From: a virus
Virus genome (UHGV): UHGV-0036148
Length of the DNA: 55,727 bases
Strand: one strand, 5' to 3'
Part shown: positions 1,670 to 54,317 of the stretch, piece by piece
Numbering within the stretch: the stretch's first letter is position 1
Layout of the letters: each line of letters opens with the position of its first letter
Notes under the pieces: model-generated
Told to the model about the DNA's origin: nothing
Databases searched by the model: none
The model's input: only the letters and a program-made list of their open reading frames with translations
Program-made: the position numbers and the translations under genes

Positions 1670-1859
1670 TATCGTCACCCCGTTTGTATATTTTGATTGG
1701 CTTGATTGGGATTGCTGGCAATTCACCTTCATTCAATGCGCTTGCCATGCCCAATATTAAACGCGCTTCAGCACCAGTAACTTTCTTACACCACGCACCG
1801 CCCGTTTTATCTTCGAACAAGATAACGGCAAACTGATCGTTTATTTCCAGCTTATCCAT
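1659..1859 (-). CDS. hypothetical protein (66 aa)
   Basis: start overlaps Q stop codon (TAATG); operon context. Confidence 0.4.
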   Translation of the reverse strand: MDKLEINDQFAVILFEDKTGGAWCKKVTGAEARLILGMASALNEGELPAIPIKPIKIYKRGDDNEA

Positions 1860-2581
1860 TATTCACCCCGTGTCACTCGTTTGATTTCGTTGTCAGCCCG
1901 CGCCTCTTCTTTGAACAATTCGGCAATGGCGTCTTCATAGAAAGCCCGGTATTTCTTCCACCATGTTGATCGGCTTACCGGGAAAACAAGCTGATTAACC
2001 GCCTGCCGGACAAGATCTACAGGGAAACGCGAGTACCCGCGCCCGCCGCAGTGCTGGCACGTTTTGAACACTGGCATTTCCGCCGCTTCACTGGCTGCTT
2101 TATCCGGTACTTCGCCACGGCCCTTGCATTGTTTGCAATGATTGCGAACCGTCCCATGCCCCTTGCATTTTTTGCAAAGGTGTTTCTCACCGTATTCGTC
2201 AAACGTAAATTTATATCCGCCGCACTCCATACAAGTTTTTTCCGTCGCGGCGCTTTGGCAATAATCCCGAAACGCGAAAACGGCAACAAGAATAATGAGA
2301 TCATTGCGTTTGGCCTCGTCCAGTTCCATAACGTATTCATAATCTTTTGCCATAGCCCTTAAACGCTCTGTAAGCAAAACTACGGCCTTATGTTTTTCGG
2401 CTTGTGATAGTTCCATCTTTCCCAAAAAAGCGCTATAACCAAGCTCTACGCGCGATTGCGCCATACCTGCCGCAGTTAGTGCATCCGTAGTATTAAGAGC
2501 GTCCGGGGACGTGCCCCGGCTTTCATCTGATAAACGCGGTGATTTTGGGAAGTGGAATTTAAGAATAGATTCCAGATTCAT
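1859..2581 (-). CDS. Q: late antiterminator Q (lambda type) with extra CxxCxGxG zinc-finger repeats
   Basis: N-terminus MNLESILKFHFPKSPRLSDE... and C-terminus ...GYSRFPV...ADNEIKRVTR parallel lambda Q as I recall it; four CxxCxGxG motifs. Confidence 0.8.
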   Translation of the reverse strand: MNLESILKFHFPKSPRLSDESRGTSPDALNTTDALTAAGMAQSRVELGYSAFLGKMELSQAEKHKAVVLLTERLRAMAKDYEYVMELDEAKRNDLIILVAVFAFRDYCQSAATEKTCMECGGYKFTFDEYGEKHLCKKCKGHGTVRNHCKQCKGRGEVPDKAASEAAEMPVFKTCQHCGGRGYSRFPVDLVRQAVNQLVFPVSRSTWWKKYRAFYEDAIAELFKEEARADNEIKRVTRGE

Positions 2582-3961: not shown

Positions 3962-4120
3962 AATGCTCTCTCCTTTTAAGGTGATTTCTACGCATTTCAG
4001 CGCTGCCGGATTTTTAAAGAGCATTTTGCTTGCTTGAAGTATACAAAATGGATACGTGTAAACAAGACGAATAGCGCCATTATGTGATCCACATCACGCA
4101 ATGGCGCCATTTTGTAAATT

Positions 4121-7686: not shown

Positions 7687-7708
7687 TTATGTGATCGCAA
7701 TCACAATG
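7687..7708. promoter_or_regulatory. CRP-consensus palindrome TGTGA-N6-TCACA
   Basis: ttaTGTGAtcgcaaTCACAatg, perfect half-sites with 6-bp spacer, in a 100-bp intergenic gap. Confidence 0.45.
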
Positions 7709-12320: not shown

Positions 12321-12968
12321 TTATGGCAGGTTTACGATCTTCGCATCAACCACCACGCCCAATATTTTTGACTCTGGATTCATAGGGATCGGCGGATACA
12401 ACGGATTCAGTGAACGCAAAAGTTTTCGGCCTCCATCAATAATCAACTGTTTAAACGTAGGTATCTGCCCTTCCTCCAGTTGTGCTATAACAAGTTTTCC
12501 GTCAATAGCTGGCGCGTGCGGGTCAACGAGTATCATAGTCCCCGCCGGGATGCTTAACCCCTGCGGTGCGTTCATTGATTCACCTTTAGCAACCAGCCAA
12601 TAACTATCATCCGAACAAATAACGCTAGTAGCAACGTGTGGCAATGTTGATCGGTGTGTGCCTTCCATATTGTTTGCTACATCCTTCCAGTCAACAACCG
12701 GATAACTGCCTAAATCACGCGGTGGCGCTCCCGGCAACGTGTTAGAAACAGAATCATCAATGACCATTCCGTCATGAGTAACAGTGAATTGCCGACGCCC
12801 AAGCGCCCGCATGATACGCGCAATATCTTCAAGATTCGGCTCACGGCGACCGTTCAGCCAGTGAGAAAGGCCGCCTTTGGTTATCCCCATAAGATCAGCC
12901 AATGAATCCTGGCTCATGCCCTGCGCCCGCATGAGTTGTTTTGCTAAGTCATACCATTTTGTTTTCAT
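12321..12968 (-). CDS. cI: CI-like repressor (HTH_XRE + S24 LexA-like peptidase)
   Basis: N-terminal HTH (QDSLADLMGITKGGLSHWLNG), C-terminal S24 domain with AKGESM serine motif and K later. Confidence 0.8.
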   Translation of the reverse strand: MKTKWYDLAKQLMRAQGMSQDSLADLMGITKGGLSHWLNGRREPNLEDIARIMRALGRRQFTVTHDGMVIDDSVSNTLPGAPPRDLGSYPVVDWKDVANNMEGTHRSTLPHVATSVICSDDSYWLVAKGESMNAPQGLSIPAGTMILVDPHAPAIDGKLVIAQLEEGQIPTFKQLIIDGGRKLLRSLNPLYPPIPMNPESKILGVVVDAKIVNLP

Positions 12969-25642: not shown

Positions 25643-25754
25643 CTGCTTACACAAAATGTATTTGTTGATTTATATCAATATACGAAATGTTGTTTTGTCG
25701 GATATTCAAGACACCGGATGAACCGGACGAGCTAACAAGAACGAGGATTAAAAA

Positions 25755-26003
25755 ATGAAAAACATGTTCAAAGTGGTTTTATTCTCTGCGGCTGTAGCTC
25801 TTACTGGTTGCGCTGTTGACAAAGAGGCCGCATTGCATAACCTGCCGAATAGCGGAGTAATTCCACAAGATGTTGTCTATGATGGTGAAGGTCATCTTGT
25901 CTATGACACTGAAAAACTGCCTTATACTGGTCAATGGTGTCATGAACTCGATCACAACATGCGCCGCATCGGTAGCCCTTCTAACTGTGTAGCTAACTAC
26001 TAA
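25755..26003 (+). CDS. small lipoprotein (moron)
   Basis: signal peptide with lipobox LTGC; AGGA SD; opposite strand between J and tail fibre; own terminator. Confidence 0.6.
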   Translation: MKNMFKVVLFSAAVALTGCAVDKEAALHNLPNSGVIPQDVVYDGEGHLVYDTEKLPYTGQWCHELDHNMRRIGSPSNCVANY

Positions 26004-26034: not shown

Positions 26035-29000
26035 TTATCCTGAGAATGAACCAGAACCGCGCGACACTATGACTGTCGGCGAATTTATATAAGCCCCCTT
26101 GTCATTTTGAGCAGATACCTTAATTTTAACTGTAACGCCCCTGCTGGTTACTGCTGCTGAATGCATAACAAGGCGCTCCGTGCCATCCAGTGCTGAATCT
26201 TTTGATGAACCGCCGATTGTTATTGTGCAACCACCAAAACCCTTAACGTTAGCCATAACGCAGATATGTCGGCTATACGCTGCGTCAGATGTGTCATTGT
26301 ATGTTATTACTTTTTCCAGCATCCCATCCCTTAACGTGCTAACGTCAGAACCTGTGTACATGTTTGCAACATCACCGATAAAGGTTTTCGCCTCAAGTGA
26401 ACCGGTAAACTTGCCGCTGTCTGCATGTATTTCACCCCTTACAACAACGTTGTTAAATTCTGATGCGCCGCTTTGTGTTATCCTCCAACCATTGGAACCG
26501 GGGACGAAGTTTGCTGATTTAATTTCATTGACAATTTTAGCCATAGTAATAGAGGCATCTGCAATTTTAGCTGTCCCTATTGATGCATCCTTAATAAATG
26601 CCTCTTTCACATACATTGCGCCGTTAGTGACATAGAAGGGCGATGTATATGCGCCGTTTGCCGCCGTCATTAACACGAAGCGGTCAACAAGGAAAATGCA
26701 CTGCGACTGAAAGTTAGTGCCATCACCAGTCAGGCCAAGCGACATACCTGTTGCGTATTTCATGCCGTTGTTGTCGGTGGCGAGCTTGATTGAATATGTC
26801 GCATCAACATTACCCCTAAAGTCGGTTAACGCTTTAGATGTCGTCTCTATTGCTGTCTTATTCCCGTTAACGGTAACTGTTAGCTGATCAATTTTCGTTG
26901 ACAACGCCTTATCTGCTGTAGCCATTGCCTGCGACCATTCTGTAATGCTTGAGTTTACCGATTCGAAAGACGCTGAGATCTGGCTAAATTTTTCTGCGCT
27001 TGATTCCTCATGCGTAGAAAGTGCCGTTGATACTTCAGACACTTTTGAATTGATCGTACTGGTAAGCGATGCGCTAAGGCCGCTTATTGCGTCTGCGCGT
27101 GCTTTTGTTTCGTCGGCGATGGCTTTGTCCATCCTGGTGACGTTGCTTGTCACTTTATTATCAAGCGTGCTGACACTTGCGCTAACTTCGCTGATAGCTT
27201 GTCCTCTGGCGCTTGTTTCGTCAGCAATTGCCTGATCAAGACGGTTTACGCTGGCTTCAGTCTTCTTATCAAGATTAGTGATCGATGCGCTTACCCCGCT
27301 AATGGCTTCCGCTGTTGCTTTTTTCTCTTCTGCCACAACGTTGTCAATGCGGTCGATTTTCGCGTTGGTTTCCCTGATTCCTTTCTTGTATTGGGCAGAA
27401 AGAGTAACACGCGTGTTGGTTTGAGCGATTGAGTTATTGATAAGTGCAATAGATGCGTTTTGCAGGCTTGCTTTTGCCTGATTTATTTCGTCGCTGTTTT
27501 TGCCAACATTATTTTCAACAGTGCCAAGATTTGCGCTGAGTCCTGATATTGCTTGTGCGCGGGCGCTTGATTCATCGGCAATTGCCTGATCAAGACGCTT
27601 AACGCTGGCGTTTGTGCTGTTCTCAAGCGTTGTTAAATCTGCTTTAACCTCTGTTATTGCGTCGCTTCTTGCCTGCGTTTCATCTGCTATTGCTTTATCA
27701 AGACGGGAAACGCTCGCGTCGGTTTTTCTTTCTAGACTGTCTATTGAGGCGTTCACGCCACTGATTGCTTGTGCGCGTGCGCTGGCCTCGTCAGAAATTG
27801 CCTGATCAAGTCTGCTTACTTCTGATTTGGTGTTGCTTTCAAGTGTGCTAATACTTGCATTCACGCTGCTGATAGCGTCAGTGCGTGCCTTCGTTTCGTC
27901 AGCAATCGCCTTATCAAGACGATTAACGTTACTTGTGACCTTACCGTCAAGTGTGGAAATTGACGCCTTCACACCGTTAATGGCTTCAGTTCTCGCGCTC
28001 GTCTCGTCTGCTATTGCCTTATCAAGACGGCTTATACTTGAGTCAGTTTTCTTGTCGAGAGCTGATACCGAGGCGTTTACTCCACTAATAGCCTCGCTGC
28101 GGGCGCTTGTTTCGTCTGCAATAGCTTGATCCAAACGTTTAACGCTGGCGTCAGTTTTCTTGTCAAGTGCTGAGATATTTGCGTTAACGTCGCTGACTGC
28201 CTGGGTGCGTGCGCTTGTTTCGTCGGCGATAGCTTGATCAAGGCGGTTAACGCTGGCGTCAGTTTTCTTGTCAAGATTGCTTATTGAGGCGTTTACACCG
28301 TTAATAGCTTCAGCGCGTGCGCTGGCCTCGTCAGCTACTGCGCGTTGCACGCTAGAAATCTGACCTTTGAGGTTTGAATCCATCGTATTCATTTCTGCCG
28401 TGATGGTTTTCAGTGATTCCGCTGTCGCTTTTTTCTCTTCAGCGATAACGTTGTCAATACGGTCAATTTCCGCTTTAGTCTCTGTCCTGCCTTTCTTGTA
28501 CTGAGCGGTAAGAGTTACGCGCGTGTTTGTCTGTGCAAGTGAGTTATTAATAAGAGCAAGTGACGCGTTTTGCATGCTTGCTTTCGCTTGCGCCAGTTCG
28601 CTGCCAACTTTTTCGCTGGACACTTCTAATGAATCAATTCTTGACTCATGCTGACCAATATCATCGGCGTTTTCCTTAACTTTTTTATAAAGATCTTCTG
28701 TTTCTTTTTTTAGCGTATCTGTATCAGCTTTTATTGATCCTGTTTCTGTAATCAGGTTGTCAGTATCATTTCTTAAATCTTCGGTTATGTTAGTCAGGTT
28801 GTCGGTTTCAGTTCTTAAATCGTCAGTTATGTTGGTCAGATTATCAGTTGCAGTTTTGAGGTTGTCGGTAGCTGCTTTTAGTTCATTTGTGGCATTTTCA
28901 ATAACATCCGTGCGATCACCAAGATCTTTGATGTCACCAATCATTTCCTTGAACTGTTCTGAGTTCATCACGTCTTTGGTGACGTAATCGCTGATTTCAT

Positions 29001-31413
29001 CAAAATTCTCTGTCGGCTTACCTGATGCCTCCACAAAGTCAGACACGCCAAAAGCATTGCGTGTGCGCACATAAACGTAATAGGTGTGCCCCGTGTTCAT
29101 GCCGCCAAAAGTCCACTGATGACCACGCCCGGTATATTGTGCCTTAGTGGTTACTGATGCCGGATCGGTGATCTGTTTTTCACCTGAGTAATAAAACTCA
29201 TAACTGGTGTCAGTGGTAAGCGTTGTTCTGCTGATCGGGTAAACTGTAGCCTGAAATACACCGGGAACCCAGTTAACTCCTACCGGGGCCGCTGGTGCAC
29301 CAATAACCAGATCCACAATACTTTCTGCACCCTTCATGCCCGTGTCATTTCTGCCACGGATGCCTAATGAGTAGGTTCCCGCATCAATGCCATAAAAATC
29401 ATAACTGTAATTAGTAGTTTCGTAGTATTTAACTACTGCCCCCGCTGAATTGTATACGCGGATTTCAAAGGTCAGGCGATGAGTTGTCGTCAGTGTTTCC
29501 CATGTTGCGCGGCATTGAACTGTTTCAGATCCAATGTTTAACACCTTCAGGTTTTCAATGTTCGGCACGCGGAAGTGATTAAGCGTATCGTTGTTGACCT
29601 CAAAGATTGCGCCATTATCAACTACAGCCTGTTTGTGCGGGTCATGCTGTGATGCCTCGATCGTGTACACGCTGTTATTTTCTGTTTCTGCCACACTGAT
29701 AATTCGACACAATACGGGTTTTGCCGCGTTAGTTGACACAGCAAATACAGTACCGTTACGAATCCACGCCGGGGCGGATGCAAGGGTAATTTTGTTTCCG
29801 CTAACTCCGGTGATCTGGTGTTTTTTAAATTTGCCGTCACTATCAAGCAGGCTAATGGTGTCGCCAGGGGTGATATATTCAGAATCAACCTTATCGACAG
29901 TGATAACCCTGCCATTGTTTGCCACGATACGACCACCTAGACGGGCGCCAGCGCGGTTATTGTCGAGTATCTCGATAATATCACCAGGGGTGAAGTGAAT
30001 TGCGTCACGGGCCATTTTAAACGTGAATTTAGACGGCTCGCGTTTTGCTGTTTCTATCAGCCATTTGCCAGCGCGGTACGCTTGCCCGCGTGACGTGCAC
30101 CCGAACGCCTCCAACGTGGTTTCGTTATAACCATCGCGGGCGATTAGTTCATCATCTGCCACGTATTCTTTTGATTGCTCCCAGCCGTTTTCCGGGTCAG
30201 TCCATGATACGATCACGGCGTTGTAACACTCTGCAAGCGGAAGACTTGAGCGAGTAAACGCGCCATCAACGACGTTTGCGTTTGTGATGGTGGCAATTGG
30301 ATCCTGTGGTGCATCAATCATCACGGTAAGGCGTTGCCCGTCCCATAACGCGATACCACGGAACATACCTGCAATGTTATCCAGTAGGTCGCGGGCGCTC
30401 ATTTGCTCCGTAATGTAAGCGTTAAGCGTCATGCGAGGTTCAAGGCCACCATAGCCATCATCAACCAACTGATCGCAGTATTGGGAGAGCACGTACAAAG
30501 CGCCATCATCAACATCAATGTAACCAGCATGTTTAGCAAGCCCGAAGCGCTCGTTTTTAACCAGATACCGGAAAATCCACGCAGGGTTATTGGTGTACGC
30601 TTTTTTGAATCCGCCAAGCCATAAACCAGAATACGCGCGCGTTTCTGTGTTGTAGTTATCAGGAACATCAACAATCAGGCCGCGAAGGTGATAGGTACGT
30701 GTAGGCGTATCAGTATATTGATCGTGGTCAATTACCGCGCCAGCTACAGCGGTATGAGGATAAGACAGGTTATCGTCAATTATTTCGCTGTAACTACTCC
30801 ACCGCGTATCATTCCTCAATAGATCGCCGTTGCTGTCTGGTGTTACGCGACGAACGCGAATATCAAATGGTTTTTCATCCGGCGCTTTAATGATGTGAGC
30901 TTCCAGATATTCACCACTTTGCTTGCCGGGGCCAATGTGTATATCCTTAATCAGCGACCACGTAGAAGATAATGACGGTTTAACATCAACCATCAACATG
31001 ACAGATGTATTGTACTGGTTGCCCTTTTCATCTGACTGGACTAGAGCATCGACACCAAGATTTAACCTGACACGGGTAACGTTTGGATCTGAAACAGTCC
31101 TGATTATTGGTGTGTCGTGAGTTACCTTTGCGTTGACAATAACGGTTGATTCGATGGCATTAAAGCCATTAATCGGCGATTGGTCAGCCGTGCCGTTGCG
31201 CCAGGCTACACTAATCCCGGGGATTGATGTATTCCCGTTTGCGTCAGTAACAGGTGTGTCATTAAGCATCACGTCATTCAGTGGCGCTTTCTGGTTTACC
31301 GGACCGTATATCGGCCCTTCACTGAGAATGTCTAAAACACGATAAAACTGTTTGTGATACAGGTTATCGTTCAATAATGTTGGTGTTTTGGCTTTGCCGC
31401 CGCCGCTACTCAT
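26035..31413 (-). CDS. J: host specificity / central tail fibre protein J with expanded repeat region
   Basis: N-terminus MSSGGGKAKTPTLLNDNLYHKQFYRVLDILSEGPIYGPV parallels lambda J; 1792 aa with about ten 35-aa tandem repeats. Confidence 0.9.
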   Translation of the reverse strand: MSSGGGKAKTPTLLNDNLYHKQFYRVLDILSEGPIYGPVNQKAPLNDVMLNDTPVTDANGNTSIPGISVAWRNGTADQSPINGFNAIESTVIVNAKVTHDTPIIRTVSDPNVTRVRLNLGVDALVQSDEKGNQYNTSVMLMVDVKPSLSSTWSLIKDIHIGPGKQSGEYLEAHIIKAPDEKPFDIRVRRVTPDSNGDLLRNDTRWSSYSEIIDDNLSYPHTAVAGAVIDHDQYTDTPTRTYHLRGLIVDVPDNYNTETRAYSGLWLGGFKKAYTNNPAWIFRYLVKNERFGLAKHAGYIDVDDGALYVLSQYCDQLVDDGYGGLEPRMTLNAYITEQMSARDLLDNIAGMFRGIALWDGQRLTVMIDAPQDPIATITNANVVDGAFTRSSLPLAECYNAVIVSWTDPENGWEQSKEYVADDELIARDGYNETTLEAFGCTSRGQAYRAGKWLIETAKREPSKFTFKMARDAIHFTPGDIIEILDNNRAGARLGGRIVANNGRVITVDKVDSEYITPGDTISLLDSDGKFKKHQITGVSGNKITLASAPAWIRNGTVFAVSTNAAKPVLCRIISVAETENNSVYTIEASQHDPHKQAVVDNGAIFEVNNDTLNHFRVPNIENLKVLNIGSETVQCRATWETLTTTHRLTFEIRVYNSAGAVVKYYETTNYSYDFYGIDAGTYSLGIRGRNDTGMKGAESIVDLVIGAPAAPVGVNWVPGVFQATVYPISRTTLTTDTSYEFYYSGEKQITDPASVTTKAQYTGRGHQWTFGGMNTGHTYYVYVRTRNAFGVSDFVEASGKPTENFDEISDYVTKDVMNSEQFKEMIGDIKDLGDRTDVIENATNELKAATDNLKTATDNLTNITDDLRTETDNLTNITEDLRNDTDNLITETGSIKADTDTLKKETEDLYKKVKENADDIGQHESRIDSLEVSSEKVGSELAQAKASMQNASLALINNSLAQTNTRVTLTAQYKKGRTETKAEIDRIDNVIAEEKKATAESLKTITAEMNTMDSNLKGQISSVQRAVADEASARAEAINGVNASISNLDKKTDASVNRLDQAIADETSARTQAVSDVNANISALDKKTDASVKRLDQAIADETSARSEAISGVNASVSALDKKTDSSISRLDKAIADETSARTEAINGVKASISTLDGKVTSNVNRLDKAIADETKARTDAISSVNASISTLESNTKSEVSRLDQAISDEASARAQAISGVNASIDSLERKTDASVSRLDKAIADETQARSDAITEVKADLTTLENSTNASVKRLDQAIADESSARAQAISGLSANLGTVENNVGKNSDEINQAKASLQNASIALINNSIAQTNTRVTLSAQYKKGIRETNAKIDRIDNVVAEEKKATAEAISGVSASITNLDKKTEASVNRLDQAIADETSARGQAISEVSASVSTLDNKVTSNVTRMDKAIADETKARADAISGLSASLTSTINSKVSEVSTALSTHEESSAEKFSQISASFESVNSSITEWSQAMATADKALSTKIDQLTVTVNGNKTAIETTSKALTDFRGNVDATYSIKLATDNNGMKYATGMSLGLTGDGTNFQSQCIFLVDRFVLMTAANGAYTSPFYVTNGAMYVKEAFIKDASIGTAKIADASITMAKIVNEIKSANFVPGSNGWRITQSGASEFNNVVVRGEIHADSGKFTGSLEAKTFIGDVANMYTGSDVSTLRDGMLEKVITYNDTSDAAYSRHICVMANVKGFGGCTITIGGSSKDSALDGTERLVMHSAAVTSRGVTVKIKVSAQNDKGAYINSPTVIVSRGSGSFSG
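27150..28420 (-). repeat. tandem ~105-bp coding repeats within J
   Basis: recurring gcttgtttcgtc(a/g)gcaat(t/a)gc(c/t)tgatcaag...aacgctggcg units; protein repeats LDxAIADETSAR... Confidence 0.7.
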
Positions 31414-33473: not shown

Positions 33474-33629
33474 ATGACTGATAAGGTGTGGAGGTTGACG
33501 GTATTCCTGTCAGGCGGCAGGGAAATGACTGTGGCTCTGTATAAAGACGAAGGCGAGGCACTGACTGACGCGCTTTTACTTACTGAAGATGACCGCGTTT
33601 TGGGATACAGGATCGAACCTGCCAAATGA
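33474..33629 (+). CDS. hypothetical small protein (51 aa), moron cassette gene 1
   Basis: GGAGGTG SD; plus strand inside minus-strand tail module. Confidence 0.35.
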   Translation: MTDKVWRLTVFLSGGREMTVALYKDEGEALTDALLLTEDDRVLGYRIEPAK

Positions 33630-33642
33630 AAGGTTAACAAAA

Positions 33643-33993
33643 ATGCAAAAATACAGATTAGACGTGTGGACTGATAAATGTGAGTGGGAAAGCATAGGAC
33701 TATTTGACACATTCGAATCAGCGCGTAATGAAGGTTGTGAATTGCTCCGCTGTTGGTCTGGTGCTCGTGATTATTATGTTATTCCGGTGCAAGTGCCGGA
33801 TAAGGTGGAAGAGATGAACCCGAAAGATATTAACTTTAACGTCAATGTTGAATTTGCCGACTCTATGGATCAGGCTTGCCCTGGTGAAATACACGCAAAA
33901 GGTTTCCCGGCAGACAATCCGCAAGCAAAACGCGAATACGAAAAAGCGGCAAAAGATTTCTGTATCGACAATTTGTCTGCGTTCGATAAATAA
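33643..33993 (+). CDS. hypothetical protein (116 aa), moron cassette gene 2
   Basis: ORF following gene 1 on plus strand. Confidence 0.4.
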   Translation: MQKYRLDVWTDKCEWESIGLFDTFESARNEGCELLRCWSGARDYYVIPVQVPDKVEEMNPKDINFNVNVEFADSMDQACPGEIHAKGFPADNPQAKREYEKAAKDFCIDNLSAFDK

Positions 33994-34002
33994 GGCGGCA
34001 AC

Positions 34003-34251
34003 ATGGGGCGGCGCAATCACGGCGATTATGTGTACACGTTGAAACAGGCCGCCCGCCTCGTTGGTTATCATGAACACGAATTTATTGATTTGCTGATTGA
34101 GCGCGGGATACTGTACCAGGTCTGTTTAACGCTGTACCCGAAAGCGAAATACCTACAGGAAAAGTTATTCATCATCATGACGGATGAAAACCAGGTTAAC
34201 CATTCATTCGTCACTGATAAGGGCGTTAATTATCTGCGTGATAACTTATAG
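34003..34251 (+). CDS. hypothetical protein (82 aa), moron cassette gene 3
   Basis: AAGGCGG SD; plus strand. Confidence 0.4.
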   Translation: MGRRNHGDYVYTLKQAARLVGYHEHEFIDLLIERGILYQVCLTLYPKAKYLQEKLFIIMTDENQVNHSFVTDKGVNYLRDNL

Positions 34252-35020: not shown

Positions 35021-35127
35021 ATTCATCACAAGAATTATAACCAGTTTACAAAATGGCTTCACACAGTGCGTGACAATATGTATATAGTAAGCAAGAAGAA
35101 AAAGCAGTACCGACAAAGGAGGCCAAC

Positions 35128-35283
35128 ATGAAGCGTTATGTAGTGGTAATGCTGAACAACGCATTCGAACAGGTGGAAGTGGCGATAGTCAAAGGCTTTG
35201 ATGACGCATTCAAATACGGTCAATTCATGATGAATGCGAAGGAAAACGAGTACCGTGATTTCTTCCTGAAAGTGGTCAACTAA
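35128..35283 (+). CDS. hypothetical small protein (51 aa)
   Basis: AGGAGG SD; plus strand between M and tape measure. Confidence 0.35.
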   Translation: MKRYVVVMLNNAFEQVEVAIVKGFDDAFKYGQFMMNAKENEYRDFFLKVVN

Positions 35284-35301
35284 TGGATTGCGGGGTGGGT
35301 T

Positions 35302-35556
35302 ATGAAATTGGTAGCGATTGGTAAAAATCTGAAAGCACAGAAAAACGCACAGGACCGGATCATCAAAAAGGGCAAGGCTTTATTAAATGCTTTCCTGAGA
35401 AAAGAGGCCACCCCCAAAAAATTACGCGATGGTTACGGTTATAAATTTGATATTAACCCCGATTGGCGGTTATTCAGCGAAGATTTAAAGGCGTGGTTAA
35501 TTATCGACCATCTGGAATATAACAGACACTGTGGGGTTAAAGGGGCGCATAAGTAA
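35302..35556 (+). CDS. hypothetical protein (84 aa)
   Basis: GGGGTGGG SD; plus strand. Confidence 0.4.
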   Translation: MKLVAIGKNLKAQKNAQDRIIKKGKALLNAFLRKEATPKKLRDGYGYKFDINPDWRLFSEDLKAWLIIDHLEYNRHCGVKGAHK

Positions 35557-35691: not shown

Positions 35692-38600
35692 TTATTTGCG
35701 GCGAGGTTGCAACATTCCTCCAGGGCGTTGCGACTCCCTTGCCATCATTTTCATTGCTACGCGTTCCATTGTCTGCTCAAGCCTGCGGCTATCCTCGTCA
35801 CTAAATCCGTTTGTGGTCTGGACGGTGATGTTTACAGGCATATTGATACCGCCACCGCTGAAAAGATCGCGGCCAGGAATAACCCTGCCATTTTCACCAG
35901 GAATCATATACTGACGCCCGTTGCTCGTCTGGAATAGCTCCGGTATCCCGTGTTCCCCTACGCGATACAGGCTACCACCATTAACCGCACCGCCGTTATA
36001 GCGAGCGCCAGCCAGTCCAAGCGTTTTGGCGGCAGCTACGCCAGTAGTAAGCCCAGTAAGTCCAGTGGCCCCAGCGCCGCCCATCGTGGCAACGTTTGCC
36101 AGGTATGCAGGAGTAGCCCACGCTGATGATAACGCTGCCGCCTCTGCCAGTGCTTTGGTTGTTGCCATAGTTCTTGCTGTATCACCAATCAATTGCTGCT
36201 TGACCCACTCAGTACCCATTTGAACAATCGTACCAATCACAGAGGAAAGGATTGTATTGCCAATGTTAGCCAGCGCCTGTTGCCAGCTTTGAGTACCGTT
36301 AATCAGGCCGACAAGCGCGTTAGTTGCAGATCCGCCCATTGCATCAACAGCATCACCTAACAGTTGGTTGGTCAATGACTGCGCCTTATACCTCTCCCAC
36401 TGAAGTGATAGCATTTCCCTCTCGTGCGCTTTTTCTTGCTCCCTCATATATTGCTCTGTAGCGCCTAAATCTGTGAGCATTTGTTTGCGAACCGCCCATT
36501 CGTTCATCGCCTGCTGAATTGGGTCTAGCTGCCCGCGTAGTTGCAGCTCATTGTTTACCAGATTATCCCAACTAGATTGGCGTTTGCGTTGCTCTTCCGC
36601 CGCAACCAGCGCTTTCCATGCCGTAGTATATTGTTCGGTATTTATTTTTCCGCTTTTAAGTGCGGCGTTTAGCGCATCCTGATCCTCTTTTAATTTCCGT
36701 TGTGCTGCGGCTTCTACGTTGTATTTGTCTGCAACATTCTGGCCCCGCTTCTCAATCTCTTTGCGCAGGCGTTCAGCCTCTTTTAGACGTTTTTTCTCCT
36801 CGCTTTCGCCAGTTTTTTTCCCATGACTGGCCTTTCTTTCAGCTTCGGCGCGTTTCTGCTCGGTGTCGTATGCTTTGGTCATTGTAGCCATGTATTTTTC
36901 ATACGCTTCCCCGGTCAGGTTTGCTTTCTCAGCCTCACGCTTAAACCCATCAATCGCCTTTTCCCTGCTGGCTGTTTTGGAGTCGAGTTTTGCCAGTTCC
37001 AGGCGGCGGTTTGCCAGATCCATTAGTTCTTGTTGATCTGCGTTAAGTGCTGCTGAAGCGTGTTGCGTTGCTGCTGCTGCGCGTTCTGCTTCTGTGGTGA
37101 TTCTTCCGTATGCATCCGCCACCAACCCTAATGAAGTGGCAAGGGTCTTCATTAGCGGATCTGTATCCTGCATAAGCAAAATATATTTGCGCTGCATTTG
37201 ATTAAGGCGGTCGAGAATATCCTCACGCTGCGCCTCTTCCCTGGTCAGGCGGGCTGTGATTTCCTGATTAGCTTTCGATAGGTTGGCGTAAGCGCGTGAC
37301 CCCTCCTCTGCTTTCTCCAGTGCCTGTTTATTCAGCTCCAGCGCCTGCGTGTCCTGGTCAATCTGTTTGTTGAGACTGGCAACGTCTTCCTCTAACTGAC
37401 CCATTGATATTTGTAGTTTATCTGCGCCAGCCAGTTTAGCCGCCTTGCTCATTCGCTCCAGTGATTCGGTACTAACATCCACTGAATCAGCAAGGTTGCG
37501 GTTTGCCTCTGCCGTTTGATCTACGTGATCTACATATGCTGTCAACCCGTAAACAGCAAGCATTAACGCGCCAGGGATACCACCAATCGCGCCCAGAGTA
37601 GCGCTAAATGCTGTTTTTAGTAGTCCCGCATTAGTCGCCGCCGCAGTGTGGGCCGCAGCAAGGCGCTGCTCTGCCGCAGTAAGGGCGTTTGATGCCGCCG
37701 TGTTCTGTGCTTTGGCTACAGCCAATTCTTTCAGCGTCTGAACTTCGAATTTTGTTCCGGCGTTTGCCGCAGCATAAGCCTGCGCCTCTCTCAGCCTTGC
37801 CGCCGCCGCCGCTGCTGATTGCCGTGCTGATACCACCTGAGCGTTAGCTAGCGCCAATTCACTCTGAGCGGCCTGCCGTGCCGCTGCCGTTTGTGCCCTG
37901 GTTGCCTGAGCGTTAGTTAATGCCTCTGCTGTTGCAGCTACGAATTTATTTACCACTCTGCCACCCATCACAGTGGCAAGGCCAATAAATGCAGTAGCTA
38001 TTTCGTTAAGGTTTTCTGACAGGGTTACAACTGCCGAATTAAAAGCACCAATCCCGCCCATAATTGACGAATTGCTGCCGAAAAATTTAGCTGCGTTGTT
38101 GCCTGCAACAGTGAAAGCCTCCTGCATAGTTGGGGTGAGTTTAGAAAACTCAGCATCAACCTCCGCTTTCATTTCCTTAAGGGCTTTAATGATAGCTTCA
38201 CGGGTGATCTTCCCTTCTGCTGCCATCTTGCGCATTTCTGCCGACGATACGCCCAATGATTTAGCCAAACCCTCTGACAGCCTGGTAGCGTTTTCTGTAA
38301 CGGAGTTAAATTCATCGCCATTCAAAACACCTTTGGCGAGGGATTGACCCAACTGACGGATCCCGCCTTCTGCTTCAGCGGCAGAAGCGCCAGAAATGCG
38401 GAATGTTTTGTTAATGGTTTCAACCATATCACCAAGTGCTTGCGTCGATAAACCAGCGTCGCGCGTCGAGCGCTCTAATTTACCGTAAAGATCTGCCGTA
38501 GCATCAAGATCGCTTCGTGAATTTTGCGCGATCTGAAATACACGCTGATTAACGTCTGCCAGTGATTCACCAGCACGAACGCTATTGATTAGCCTGTTAT

Positions 38601-38841
38601 TCACCTCCTGCCAGGCGTTTGCATACTCAATGATTTTTTTTGCTGCCATTGCAGCACCCAGGGCACTGGCAATCGAGGATAGCTTTGACAGTGACTTACT
38701 TGCCTGAGTGGCGGCACTATCCACGCGCTCCAAATCCTTTTCCATTTTGCCAGTTGCGCGATCTACCTCGCGCTGAACAGTCAGAAGCTGACCCGTTTTT
38801 GCATCAACCTCGTAATAAATTGTGCCTAAATTTGTTGACAT
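35692..38841 (-). CDS. H: tail tape measure protein
   Basis: 1049 aa, Ala/Gln-rich coiled-coil, position between chaperone and M; GAGGT SD. Confidence 0.85.
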   Translation of the reverse strand: MSTNLGTIYYEVDAKTGQLLTVQREVDRATGKMEKDLERVDSAATQASKSLSKLSSIASALGAAMAAKKIIEYANAWQEVNNRLINSVRAGESLADVNQRVFQIAQNSRSDLDATADLYGKLERSTRDAGLSTQALGDMVETINKTFRISGASAAEAEGGIRQLGQSLAKGVLNGDEFNSVTENATRLSEGLAKSLGVSSAEMRKMAAEGKITREAIIKALKEMKAEVDAEFSKLTPTMQEAFTVAGNNAAKFFGSNSSIMGGIGAFNSAVVTLSENLNEIATAFIGLATVMGGRVVNKFVAATAEALTNAQATRAQTAAARQAAQSELALANAQVVSARQSAAAAAARLREAQAYAAANAGTKFEVQTLKELAVAKAQNTAASNALTAAEQRLAAAHTAAATNAGLLKTAFSATLGAIGGIPGALMLAVYGLTAYVDHVDQTAEANRNLADSVDVSTESLERMSKAAKLAGADKLQISMGQLEEDVASLNKQIDQDTQALELNKQALEKAEEGSRAYANLSKANQEITARLTREEAQREDILDRLNQMQRKYILLMQDTDPLMKTLATSLGLVADAYGRITTEAERAAAATQHASAALNADQQELMDLANRRLELAKLDSKTASREKAIDGFKREAEKANLTGEAYEKYMATMTKAYDTEQKRAEAERKASHGKKTGESEEKKRLKEAERLRKEIEKRGQNVADKYNVEAAAQRKLKEDQDALNAALKSGKINTEQYTTAWKALVAAEEQRKRQSSWDNLVNNELQLRGQLDPIQQAMNEWAVRKQMLTDLGATEQYMREQEKAHEREMLSLQWERYKAQSLTNQLLGDAVDAMGGSATNALVGLINGTQSWQQALANIGNTILSSVIGTIVQMGTEWVKQQLIGDTARTMATTKALAEAAALSSAWATPAYLANVATMGGAGATGLTGLTTGVAAAKTLGLAGARYNGGAVNGGSLYRVGEHGIPELFQTSNGRQYMIPGENGRVIPGRDLFSGGGINMPVNITVQTTNGFSDEDSRRLEQTMERVAMKMMARESQRPGGMLQPRRK

Positions 38842-39100
38842 GATTTAACCTCATACAAAATGTGATCTATGCCTCTATTTTATACAAAATGGATTTACCT
38901 CAGTGAACACATTTTGTATAAAGAAGCCAAAGGAAAGGGATAGAGCGAAGGGACTTAAAAGGCCGGATTGACCGGAGGAAGCAAAAGAGGATAAGAAAAT
39001 GAAAAACGTAAACTACCACCCCAACGAACATGAGCGCTATGCTGACTTTATCGAGCAAATGTTAAAAGCGCTGAAAAACAAAAACTAAGCGGGGTGAAAT

Positions 39101-39460
39101 ATGAAAAGTCTGGCAAAAATCTTAATCGTGGCGGTACTTGCAGGAGTTGCGCTTAATGCTAATGCTGAGCACTCTCCGTCCGCAAAATACATACTTCGTG
39201 AATGTGCGCATAATGCTCAGTTGTACGATATAAAGCATGGTGACGGTAATGGTGATCTGGAAATGCCATTTAACGTTGGCTGTATTCATTACGCAATGAA
39301 GCCAGTATTAGAAAAAACCGCTGAATGGAAAGATCTTAATAGCAAGTACAATGAATTAAAAGAGGCGGCAAAAAACAATAAAGCGTCACTAAATGCGTTT
39401 AAGGATGGCGAGTCTTATGGTGTAAACGTGGCCCACAGAGTTGATGCGTATTTCAACTAA
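39101..39460 (+). CDS. secreted protein with signal peptide (moron)
   Basis: MKSLAKILIVAVLAGVALNANA signal peptide; opposite strand within tail module. Confidence 0.5.
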   Translation: MKSLAKILIVAVLAGVALNANAEHSPSAKYILRECAHNAQLYDIKHGDGNGDLEMPFNVGCIHYAMKPVLEKTAEWKDLNSKYNELKEAAKNNKASLNAFKDGESYGVNVAHRVDAYFN

Positions 39461-39472
39461 CACAGAATTTTA

Positions 39473-39499
39473 GAGGCCCGGCTAATCCCGGGCTTTTTC
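39473..39499 (+). terminator. rho-independent terminator after secreted-protein gene
   Basis: GCCCGG-ctaatc-CCGGGC followed by TTTTTC. Confidence 0.5.
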
Positions 39500-40162
39500 T
39501 TGCTCGCTATTTTCCATTCTTTTTAGTATCTCCATAGCCTCCCTCATTCCATCGTCATAAGCCTTTTTATCCAGTAATACATCTGGTCGTTTTTGTTTGT
39601 TTCTTGCTTCTGGCGGCGTTTTAGCACGCACAGCGGCCCTATATCCGGTCATTGTCATATTCCACGCTTCTGATTCTGATAACCCCAGGTGAGCAACGGC
39701 AGAATAAACAAACTCCAGTATGTCGAACGTTGGTTTGTATTCACCTTCCTGTCTATCGCTTGCGACCTCTTCAGGGCCATCACCAATTAAGCCGTGGTAC
39801 ATGCAGTGTTGCGCCAGCGTAATAACATCATCAACCGGCATTATTCCCGGTTTTAATCTCAATTTACCCGAAGGAGTGAACCTGCATTCGCCCAATAACG
39901 GGCCTGTTTCGTCGTCTGAGCAACATTTCAGTATGTGGATGGATGTTTGTACTATCTCACCATAACACCGCGCCATAATGCGATTGCGGAGGTCTGGATC
40001 TGTGGGTAATCGTGATGGGTATTTGCTGCCGTGGATAAGTGCGAAATATTCGACAAGCTCACTATCGTTGCCGATTTTAGCCATCGCAGCAAAGCAAGGA
40101 TTAAATTCATAGCGCTTACCGTTCACCACAGCCGCAAATTGTCCTGTACGAACATGGATCAT
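39482..40162 (-). CDS. putative tail assembly chaperone (by position)
   Basis: occupies the G/GT position between major tail gene and tape measure; ATG 40162 with AGGGTGA SD. Confidence 0.3.
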   Translation of the reverse strand: MIHVRTGQFAAVVNGKRYEFNPCFAAMAKIGNDSELVEYFALIHGSKYPSRLPTDPDLRNRIMARCYGEIVQTSIHILKCCSDDETGPLLGECRFTPSGKLRLKPGIMPVDDVITLAQHCMYHGLIGDGPEEVASDRQEGEYKPTFDILEFVYSAVAHLGLSESEAWNMTMTGYRAAVRAKTPPEARNKQKRPDVLLDKKAYDDGMREAMEILKRMENSEQEKARD

Positions 40163-40181
40163 AGTATTCACCCTAAAAGGA

Positions 40182-40206: not shown

Positions 40207-40683
40207 TTATGCGGCAACTGGATCGGTTACAGTTACCTGGCCCGCGCTTTCGCACTCAATGGACCAGGTTGTCACATCATCGTGCGGCGCTTCTTCTTCG
40301 AAAGATGTGCAAAGGAATGGACCCTCAGTCACATCGGTGGGGGTGACGATTTTTAGCCACACGTATGGCTGATTTCCGGTAGCAGTGCCCGGTGACATTA
40401 CATGACGCTTTAGTTCTTTCTGGTTGTGTAGAGCATCACTACGTGATACGCCGTCGCCGGAGAAAGAAACAGATTTGTAAGTGACCAGGGATTCTTTGGT
40501 ATAGTCGGCGGATTTATCAGCGGTGGCGTCTGCGGTTTCCCATTCTACGGAAAGCGTTTTGCCGCGCATCATGCCTAACGCTTTATATGCTTCTTTACCA
40601 GGTTTCGCATTAGGGCAAGCGATAGCAAAGAATACAGCAACGTCACGGCCTGTAAATGAGCCATTTTCGCAAGTCTGAGACAT
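40207..40683 (-). CDS. major tail protein (V-like, by position)
   Basis: 158-aa ORF in the V position upstream of chaperone/tape measure. Confidence 0.5.
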   Translation of the reverse strand: MSQTCENGSFTGRDVAVFFAIACPNAKPGKEAYKALGMMRGKTLSVEWETADATADKSADYTKESLVTYKSVSFSGDGVSRSDALHNQKELKRHVMSPGTATGNQPYVWLKIVTPTDVTEGPFLCTSFEEEAPHDDVTTWSIECESAGQVTVTDPVAA

Positions 40684-54295: not shown

Positions 54296-54317
54296 TACAT
54301 TGTGATACAGATCACAT
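54296..54317. promoter_or_regulatory. CRP-consensus palindrome TGTGA-N6-TCACA
   Basis: cattgTGTGAtacagaTCACAtttt; perfect half-sites, 6-bp spacer, A/T flanks as in CRP consensus. Confidence 0.45.

Follow-up and report, generated by a model that had tools for sequence, protein, structure and literature searches.

An exchangeable cassette for envelope-targeted proteins, probably a moron, between the DUF6246 and tape measure genes of an mEpimmI-type coliphage

The term 'moron' was coined for gp15 of phage HK97, which brings about superinfection exclusion by blocking genome injection (PMC3594210) and whose gene separates the tail-assembly-chaperone gene(s) from the tape measure protein (TMP) gene (PMC3594210; HK97 record). 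We analysed a 55,727-nucleotide (nt) stretch of viral DNA (UHGV virus genome UHGV-0036148; the window) in which a plus-strand gene for a protein of 119 amino acids (aa) occupies this same slot. Like that of gp15, the gene has a small envelope-targeted product and its own terminator, and is missing at the equivalent junction of related phages. The two differ in most other respects: gp15 is a 62-aa, YebO-like, single-pass inner-membrane protein encoded in the same direction as the tail genes, whereas the window encodes, on the opposite strand, a 119-aa precursor in which a soluble four-helix domain is predicted to follow a cleavable signal peptide, from a gene that is preceded by a small open reading frame (ORF) and forms part of a multi-allelic cassette locus. 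Membership of the gp15/YebO family was rejected, as neither homology nor topology fits.

The window represents a temperate coliphage of the mEpimmI type, and at this locus its DNA is 97% identical to that of Escherichia phage mEp515. The mEpimmI group, of which mEp515 is a member, comprises temperate, Nus-dependent, non-lambdoid coliphages of human stool, where they are reportedly as common as lambdoid phages (PMC11893012); phages of this type also occur as prophages in human gut E. coli (PMC11893012; RefSeq and complete-genome matches). Lpp-type lipoproteins have been experimentally shown to exclude mEp021 and mEp515 (PMC11893012). Like Lpp021 and Lpp010, the 119-aa protein is encoded in an mEpimmI phage, within the tail module and on the opposite strand; unlike these and Cor/Llp, to which it is unrelated in sequence, it has the cleavage site A-N-A↓E without a Cys, and the slot of the Lpp genes is after J. 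A Cor/Llp/Lpp-type lipoprotein identity was rejected given the lack of a lipobox. The window also encodes an 82-aa lipoprotein (25755-26003, plus strand; lipobox LTGC) directly after the J-like tail tip gene, which probably corresponds to the type-A Lpp exclusion protein described in the mEpimmI study (PMC11893012). The region upstream of this lipoprotein gene is paralogous to that of the cassette described here (motif, hairpin CCGGATTGACCGGA, Shine-Dalgarno sequence and first codons).

Two further kinds of known system resemble the locus in part. As with lambda bor and lom, a prophage gene for an envelope protein lies within or beside late genes, and an Ail/Lom-family protein is encoded at the very same junction in a distant DUF6246 phage; unlike lambda Bor (a lipoprotein) and Lom (an outer-membrane beta-barrel), the window product is predicted to be a soluble helical periplasmic protein, and shares no homology with them. 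Temperate phages also carry hotspots of variable accessory and defence genes, for example in P2 and P4. The present locus has the fixed position, conserved flanks and interchangeable cargo in syntenic genomes of such P2/P4-type hotspots, but differs from them in that the main (mostly first) product of every cassette is envelope-targeted and the left recombination boundary falls within coding DNA, where a shared signal peptide ends. Unlike in defence hotspots, no known defence family was found in the window cassette (PADLOC).

The 119-aa gene is very probably part of an autonomous moron cassette (approximately 38.87–39.50 kb) that runs against the late/tail operon. The whole late/head/tail operon of the window is on the minus strand, and three of its genes lie around the cassette:

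35692..38841, minus strand: TMP gene (1049 aa), left flank of the cassette; from the ORF, Pfam TMP_3 in homologous loci and RefSeq annotation
39482..40171, minus strand: DUF6246 gene, right flank of the cassette (Pfam DUF6246, E = 3e-54)
40207..40683, minus strand: tail tube gene, upstream neighbour of the DUF6246 gene in the operon

The DUF6246 product, for which Pfam and PHROGs list the function as unknown, would, by gene position, be the tail-assembly chaperone. Its gene is a single ORF of 226–229 aa, with no separate frameshift-extension ORF between it and the cassette. The gap between the DUF6246 and TMP genes is 640 nt in the window and contains the cassette on the plus strand. An initial annotation, made from the letters of the window, had described the 119-aa gene as a moron, and this reading is supported by flanks that are contiguous in relatives, a lower G+C content (0.41–0.42 at 38750–39500, compared with 0.45–0.58 in the flanks, with GC and AT skew changing sign), the gene's own terminator, a predicted sigma-70-like promoter that is conserved, and its orientation against the late operon. 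What that annotation missed is that the slot is that of HK97 gp15, that the locus is a polymorphic cassette site that was filled in every close relative and that the small ORF, which the cassette promoter would co-transcribe, is conserved.

We compared the junction across 77 viral contigs encoding a relative of DUF6246 together with E. coli prophages, counting as close those with a DUF6246 protein at least 70% identical to that of the window and as distant those at 25–41% identity; the junction was readable in 46 close relatives and 29 distant DUF6246 phages. All 46 close relatives have an opposite-strand cassette at the junction—the site was never empty—and its main product is envelope-targeted (periplasmic, lipoprotein or membrane). 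In most of the 29 distant relatives, the gap between the two genes is −4 to 72 nt, consistent with the annotated interruption of a usually contiguous chaperone–TMP pair. The cargo of the close relatives is diverse. The family of the 119-aa protein (119/116 aa) is present at five of the 46 loci and an unrelated secreted family of 137–141 aa at 15, but the commonest cargo is a VasI/TagO-like lipoprotein (17 of 46; Pfam VasI, E = 1.7e-15), which is followed by a 106-aa protein in seven loci, by a BamE/OsmE-like lipoprotein in nine and by nothing in one. A 100-aa membrane protein, without similarity to gp15, is the cargo on its own in seven loci and is found downstream of a 116-aa allele in two more; a 165-aa secreted protein and a 245-aa lipoprotein also occur at the site. 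The mature domains of the secreted cargo families have no detectable similarity to one another, and mEp010, mEp044 and mEp013 carry three different cargos.

Inserts do occur at this junction in some distant relatives; most encode a lipoprotein or an Ail/Lom outer-membrane protein, in the same orientation as the flanking tail genes. Examples are at 3664-4209 in L085, 3661-4125 in L086/L087 and 3746-4543 in L060, L061 and L069; these same-strand genes, which encode an Ail/Lom-family outer-membrane protein, a DUF2846 lipoprotein and a pair of lipoproteins, were independently acquired.

The boundaries of exchange can be read from loci that share flanks and differ in cargo. On the right, the terminator stem (GCCCGG...CCGGGCTTTTT) is invariant in ten loci with unrelated cargo, and homology resumes exactly there. 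The left side has a promoter block that is invariant across loci, followed by a conserved small ORF and start region, and most relatives keep a signal peptide of the MK(R/S)L type before unrelated mature domains. Comparison of mEp010 (138-aa cargo) with L009, an E. coli prophage with a 116-aa cargo, places the break at the end of the signal peptide: DNA identity is 92% both upstream of the gene and over the 66 nt of the signal peptide, and drops to 38% immediately past the cleavage site. L009 carries a family allele like the 119-aa gene, and the signal peptide in the window is of the L009 type but has diverged from it. Given where homology breaks, the cargo appears to be swapped as a module, with the signal peptide and the terminator as recombination handles. 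Alleles can be deeply divergent in otherwise near-identical phages; between the window and L093, the cargo is 32% identical, compared with 96% for the protein at the chaperone position, 97% for the tube and 98% for the TMP N terminus.

Such a locus could also supply lysogenic-conversion factors that have nothing to do with phages and act on host envelope physiology (stress tolerance, serum or bile resistance, adhesion), as do lambda Bor and Lom. The suggestion in the initial annotation that such morons often act on host surface or virulence properties is, for the 119-aa gene, speculative. Lambda bor is likewise an opposite-strand gene with its own promoter and terminator, and the company kept at the site would suit this idea (lipoproteins resembling BamE/OsmE and VasI in close relatives and, in a single distant one, an outer-membrane protein of the Ail/Lom family), as would the occurrence of these phages as prophages of human gut E. 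coli (PMC11893012). The 119-aa protein is, however, unlike any known envelope-stress or virulence factor, and very deep allele divergence beside near-identical flanks fits a target in an arms race better than a housekeeping envelope function; we consider this explanation decidedly unlikely, although it is the strongest of the alternatives.

The ORF itself is as initially annotated (39101..39460, plus strand, 119 aa, ATG start). A few ORFs of 119 codons may occur by chance in 56 kb, but this one is a real gene under purifying selection: the ratio of non-synonymous to synonymous substitution rates (dN/dS) is 0.16–0.19 relative to a 79%-identical allele (approximately 35 synonymous and 31 non-synonymous differences), and a second branch of the family, at approximately 37% identity, retains 28 invariant columns in the family alignment, including both cysteines as well as E34, Y42-D43, P68, D102-G103-E104 and R113. 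The same gene has been deposited as encoding a 'hypothetical protein' (mEp515_83; RefSeq WP_053888260.1) and goes undiscussed in the mEpimmI paper (PMC11893012). No family in Pfam, PHROGs, NCBIfam or PADLOC matched the 119-aa protein; the sole PHROG match (E = 0.05) covers the signal peptide only. A profile search of 1.84 billion representative proteins recovered only five family clusters, all of 116–129 aa and with the same type of leader, along with one further marginal match (633 aa, E = 6.4e-4). All placeable members, even those at approximately 26–32% identity, occupy the DUF6246/TMP slot. Translated searches (tblastn) of 50,697 phage records matched mEp515 only, and the family was found in five of 5,426 complete E. 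coli genomes. This rarity, the family's presence at five of 46 cassette loci and the lack of a known domain might suggest a decaying or non-exported remnant without current function, but this is extremely improbable in view of the purifying selection, the Cys and motif residues held invariant at approximately 37% identity, the very confident predicted fold described below and the intact expression signals.

The precursor divides into two parts:

39101..39166, plus strand: signal peptide, residues 1–22, with a predicted signal peptidase I site ANA↓E; from the tripartite sequence and family invariance (AlphaFold2 predicted local distance difference test (pLDDT) < 50)
39167..39460, plus strand: mature 97-aa domain and stop codon; predicted to fold as a four-helix bundle, with invariant C35 and C61 (precursor numbering)

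We judged the signal peptide from sequence features (hydropathy, A-x-A and the family alignment), and at this level both the classical signal peptide with cleavage after ANA and the secreted or periplasmic product proposed in the initial annotation are supported. The n-region (MKSLAK) has two Lys; the h-region (ILIVAVLAGVAL) spans 12 residues (I7–L18), with an 11-residue Kyte–Doolittle mean of up to 3.1; and the c-region (NANA↓E) has Ala at −3 and −1 before E23, with A20, N21 and A22 invariant. A lipobox ([LVI][ASTVI][GAS]C) was not found in the 119-aa ORF, and a regular-expression scan of the window for this pattern returned only 25755 (Lpp type) and 51356 (spanin-like); at other alleles of the site, a similar leader of the MKRLAK type ends in a lipobox rather than A-x-A. 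Nor is a single retained N-terminal transmembrane helix predicted. Because the 12-residue h-region is followed by A-x-A and then by a polar mature domain, cleavage rather than anchoring is expected; the predicted route is Sec export followed by signal peptidase I cleavage behind A22.

AlphaFold2, run on the family alignment, predicted the mature domain as a four-helix bundle (residues 4–24, 32–48, 52–70 and 72–96) with a pLDDT of 93.7 and a predicted template-modelling score of 0.85, and left the signal peptide unplaced (pLDDT < 50 for residues 1–20). The invariant cysteines are in helices 1 and 2 of the model and probably form a structural C35–C61 disulfide, for which an oxidizing compartment would be the natural reading. 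Immunity proteins against periplasmic toxins are typically small, disulfide-bonded periplasmic binding proteins. The size, predicted disulfide and location of the 119-aa protein are thus also typical of an orphan immunity protein against a periplasm-acting toxin of competitors (a type VI secretion system (T6SS) effector, colicin or other bacteriocin), and it fits this idea that the commonest cargo at the site (17 of 46 loci) is a VasI/TagO-like, T6SS-associated lipoprotein and that a conserved leader followed by polymorphic alleles is reminiscent of immunity-gene arrays. We regard it as quite improbable, however: no toxin gene is adjacent, neither sequence nor fold matches a known immunity family, and the family is confined to the phage slot (the five clusters and one marginal 633-aa match noted above).

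The following expression signals and small ORF were located in the cassette:

38853..38922, no strand assigned: regulatory block in the TMP/cassette intergenic region, with three copies of ATACAAAATG (38853 plus, 38882 plus, 38910 minus) as inverted repeats
38858..38879, no strand assigned: CRP-like site; left half perfect, centre approximately 61 bp upstream of the predicted plus-strand start (class I position)
38879..38907, minus strand: mirror-image promoter-like site TTCACT-17-TATAAA, directed toward the TMP gene; from the inverted repeat, overlapping the plus-strand promoter
38894..38922, plus strand: predicted sigma-70-type promoter TTTACC-17-TATAAA with ATACAAAATGGA directly 5′; found by eye, 9 of 12 consensus matches
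38963..38976, plus strand: 5′ untranslated region (UTR) hairpin CCGGATTGACCGGA
38999..39088, plus strand: small ORF (29 aa, hydrophilic; MKNVNYHPNEHERYADFIEQMLKALKNKN), first cistron; supported by polymorphism data and by conservation upstream of four unrelated cargo families
39089..39106, plus strand: intercistronic junction with the Shine-Dalgarno-like GGGGTG and the start codon (GCGGGGTGAAATATGAAA)
39473..39501, plus strand: intrinsic terminator, right boundary of the swappable cassette; overlaps the stop and last codons of the DUF6246 gene

Within the regulatory block, TCTATTTTATACAAAATG and ACATTTTGTATAAAGA are invariant across eight loci with different cargo. A promoter scan tool reported no promoter for the cassette; its rule accepts only −10 hexamers with T as the sixth base. 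The predicted promoter is a consensus match, and in its favour are that it is conserved in relatives (−35 of TTTAC(C/T), TTCACT or TTCATT), that the motif ATACAAAATGG lies directly 5′ of its −35 and that the same arrangement of motif and −35 recurs at the predicted early promoter PL (ATACAAAATGGATTGACT-N17-TATATT) and at 35046, in a plus-strand island of the tail module. The mirror-image minus-strand site is a weaker candidate, as its −35 is not conserved in relatives. The 10-mer ATACAAAATG, which may be a phage-specific promoter element or regulator site, occurs 21 times in the window with one mismatch allowed (7.6 expected), for example at 4041, 12199, 19769, 35046, 38853, 38882, 38910 and 54287.

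The CRP half-site reported in the initial annotation is present: the left half (AAATGTGATCT, 38858–38868) matches the consensus exactly, with the TGTGATC invariant in relatives, but the right half is poor (5 of 11). TGTGAT-N4-ATCACA palindromes number nine in the window (1.6 expected) and are perfect at 7690–7705 and 54301–54316; those with one mismatch include 4083, 33364 and 35015, the last two in other divergent intergenic regions of the tail module. A phage-encoded regulator is just as possible a reader of these CRP-like sites as host CRP.

The 5′-UTR hairpin is found again at 25714, upstream of the Lpp-type lipoprotein gene (approximately 0.03 matches expected by chance); a match to CCGGATTAACCGGA at 1448 was set aside, being inside a coding region. 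The small ORF, already in the initial annotation, is present and coding, with a pooled ratio of non-synonymous to synonymous polymorphism (pN/pS) of 0.05 and 3, 1 and 15 variable sites at the first, second and third codon positions, respectively—an even stronger constraint than on the 119-aa gene. It is optional, being missing in the L011 and L093 cassettes, and scans of Pfam, PHROGs, NCBIfam and PADLOC returned nothing usable for its product, which could be a leader peptide, a small regulator or a means of translational coupling. The arrangement of the signals suggests that the small ORF and the cargo gene would be transcribed from the predicted promoter as a bicistron. The 18-mer pattern of the intercistronic junction recurs at 35290, before a ParE-like gene (two matches against 0.03 expected). 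At the other end, the gene's own terminator was confirmed as a G+C-rich hairpin (39473–39496) with a T-run to approximately 39501 (−15.7 kcal/mol, z = −2.25), at a site that the mEp515 record annotates as an ARNold terminator. An Rfam scan of the region gave sub-threshold matches only, caused by the terminator, and the RNA of the 5′ UTR and small ORF is no more structured than shuffled sequences (z = 0.35).

The window encodes an N-like protein and two further regulators of relevance here:

12321-12968, minus strand: cI-type repressor gene
1859-2581, minus strand: Q-type antiterminator gene

Given the Q-type antiterminator, late transcripts can read through the cassette. Since the cassette is head-on to the Q-dependent late operon, its layout suggests that it is probably expressed while the late genes are silent, in a lysogen or early in infection, and the resemblance to PL may allow repressor control. 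The cI and N-like genes and the predicted PL and PR were located, but the operators of the repressor were not definable. The upstream element and −35 layout common to the cassette promoter and PL could, through such repressor control, restrict expression to the time after induction or infection, as expected of an early lytic accessory that shields the infected cell or its progeny from secondary adsorption (like T5 Llp), tunes lysis from the periplasm (like T4 RI) or inhibits a host periplasmic enzyme. The gene lies outside the lysis module, however, and varies or is replaced in otherwise near-identical phages, so that it is not essential for the lytic cycle; head-on orientation in the late operon also disfavours late expression. 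We consider an early lytic role improbable.

The explanation that we prefer is that the cassette serves to block infection by other phages or otherwise to shield the envelope. The conserved promoter would drive the small ORF and the 119-aa gene up to the intrinsic terminator; Sec would export the precursor and signal peptidase I would cut after A22, releasing a 97-aa four-helix protein, probably disulfide-bonded, into the periplasm. There, by analogy, the mature protein might act as a small binding module that blocks a post-adsorption or injection step of other phages and so protects the lysogen, or shields the envelope in another way. An infection-blocking role is favoured because the slot is that of HK97 gp15, which blocks genome injection, because the expression signals are shared with a gene for which exclusion has been demonstrated in this phage group, because each cassette of the clade has an envelope-targeted main product and because ancient alleles are swapped among near-identical phages, as is the case for specificity determinants under frequency-dependent selection.

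Several observations weigh against an infection-blocking role. The 119-aa protein has no similarity to gp15 (no BLASTP alignment at E ≤ 100), no PADLOC match and no likeness to a known exclusion or defence protein. The type of cargo is independent of the neighbouring TMP (length and N terminus) and of whether the receptor is LamB or OmpA, with three different cargos among LamB-using phages (PMC11893012); because the cargo tracks neither the TMP nor the outer-membrane receptor, no phage-side partner is indicated. The cassette promoter and PL also share a ATACAAAATGGATT(G/T)AC element, and were the repressor to bind there, lysogens would keep the cassette switched off. Taken as a whole, from cassette and exported protein to infection block or envelope shield, the preferred explanation has in our estimate slightly less than an even chance of being right, and we are a little more reserved about an exclusion function of the 119-aa protein, which is argued by analogy. 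A more specific version—the junction as a dedicated plug-and-play locus for envelope effectors, and the 119-aa family as a new periplasmic anti-phage protein that would bind an incoming tail-tip or tape-measure component or a periplasmic host partner and block injection—seems rather unlikely. In such a locus, the fixed promoter, small ORF, signal peptide and terminator would be the recombination handles by which prophages shuffle effectors.

Other parts of the tail module are variable as well. The TMP is 1049 aa in L005 (4592-7741) and 735 aa in L006 (5535-7742), although their cargo alleles are 100% identical, so that TMP length is polymorphic in this group, which implies different tail lengths or internal deletions. 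The tail operon of these phages is broken repeatedly by plus-strand islands. One (33589-34251), between the tail L and minor tail genes, includes an 82-aa fragment that RefSeq annotates as a KilAC-domain antirepressor; another (35129-35556) consists of a 51-aa ORF followed by the gene for an 84-aa ParE-like toxin-family protein, which may be a toxin–antitoxin-like pair and which is joined by GCGGGGTGGGTTATGAAA, the same junction as between the small ORF and the 119-aa gene. In the prophage L091, with locus DNA 98.8% identical at the query region, the gene at the portal position (27697-29067) is labelled 'anti-CBASS protein Acb1 family protein' in RefSeq and corresponds to Phage_portal_3 (Pfam) in related loci; an annotation artefact or a fused function is possible.

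The locus goes beyond a textbook moron in its signal-peptide-bounded cassette exchange and its conserved leader small ORF. It was for a moron in the chaperone/TMP slot, HK97 gp15, that superinfection exclusion by a prophage gene was first defined, and the present site offers a ready-made set of eight or more unrelated, envelope-targeted cargos, placed behind the same expression and export signals in otherwise near-identical phages. As phages of the mEp collection can be cultured on E. coli K-12, cargo swaps for exclusion specificity are straightforward. The site also adds an orphan family of confidently predicted periplasmic four-helix proteins. If the cargos instead alter envelope traits of the host, they would be candidate lysogenic-conversion factors in a common group of stool phages (PMC11893012).

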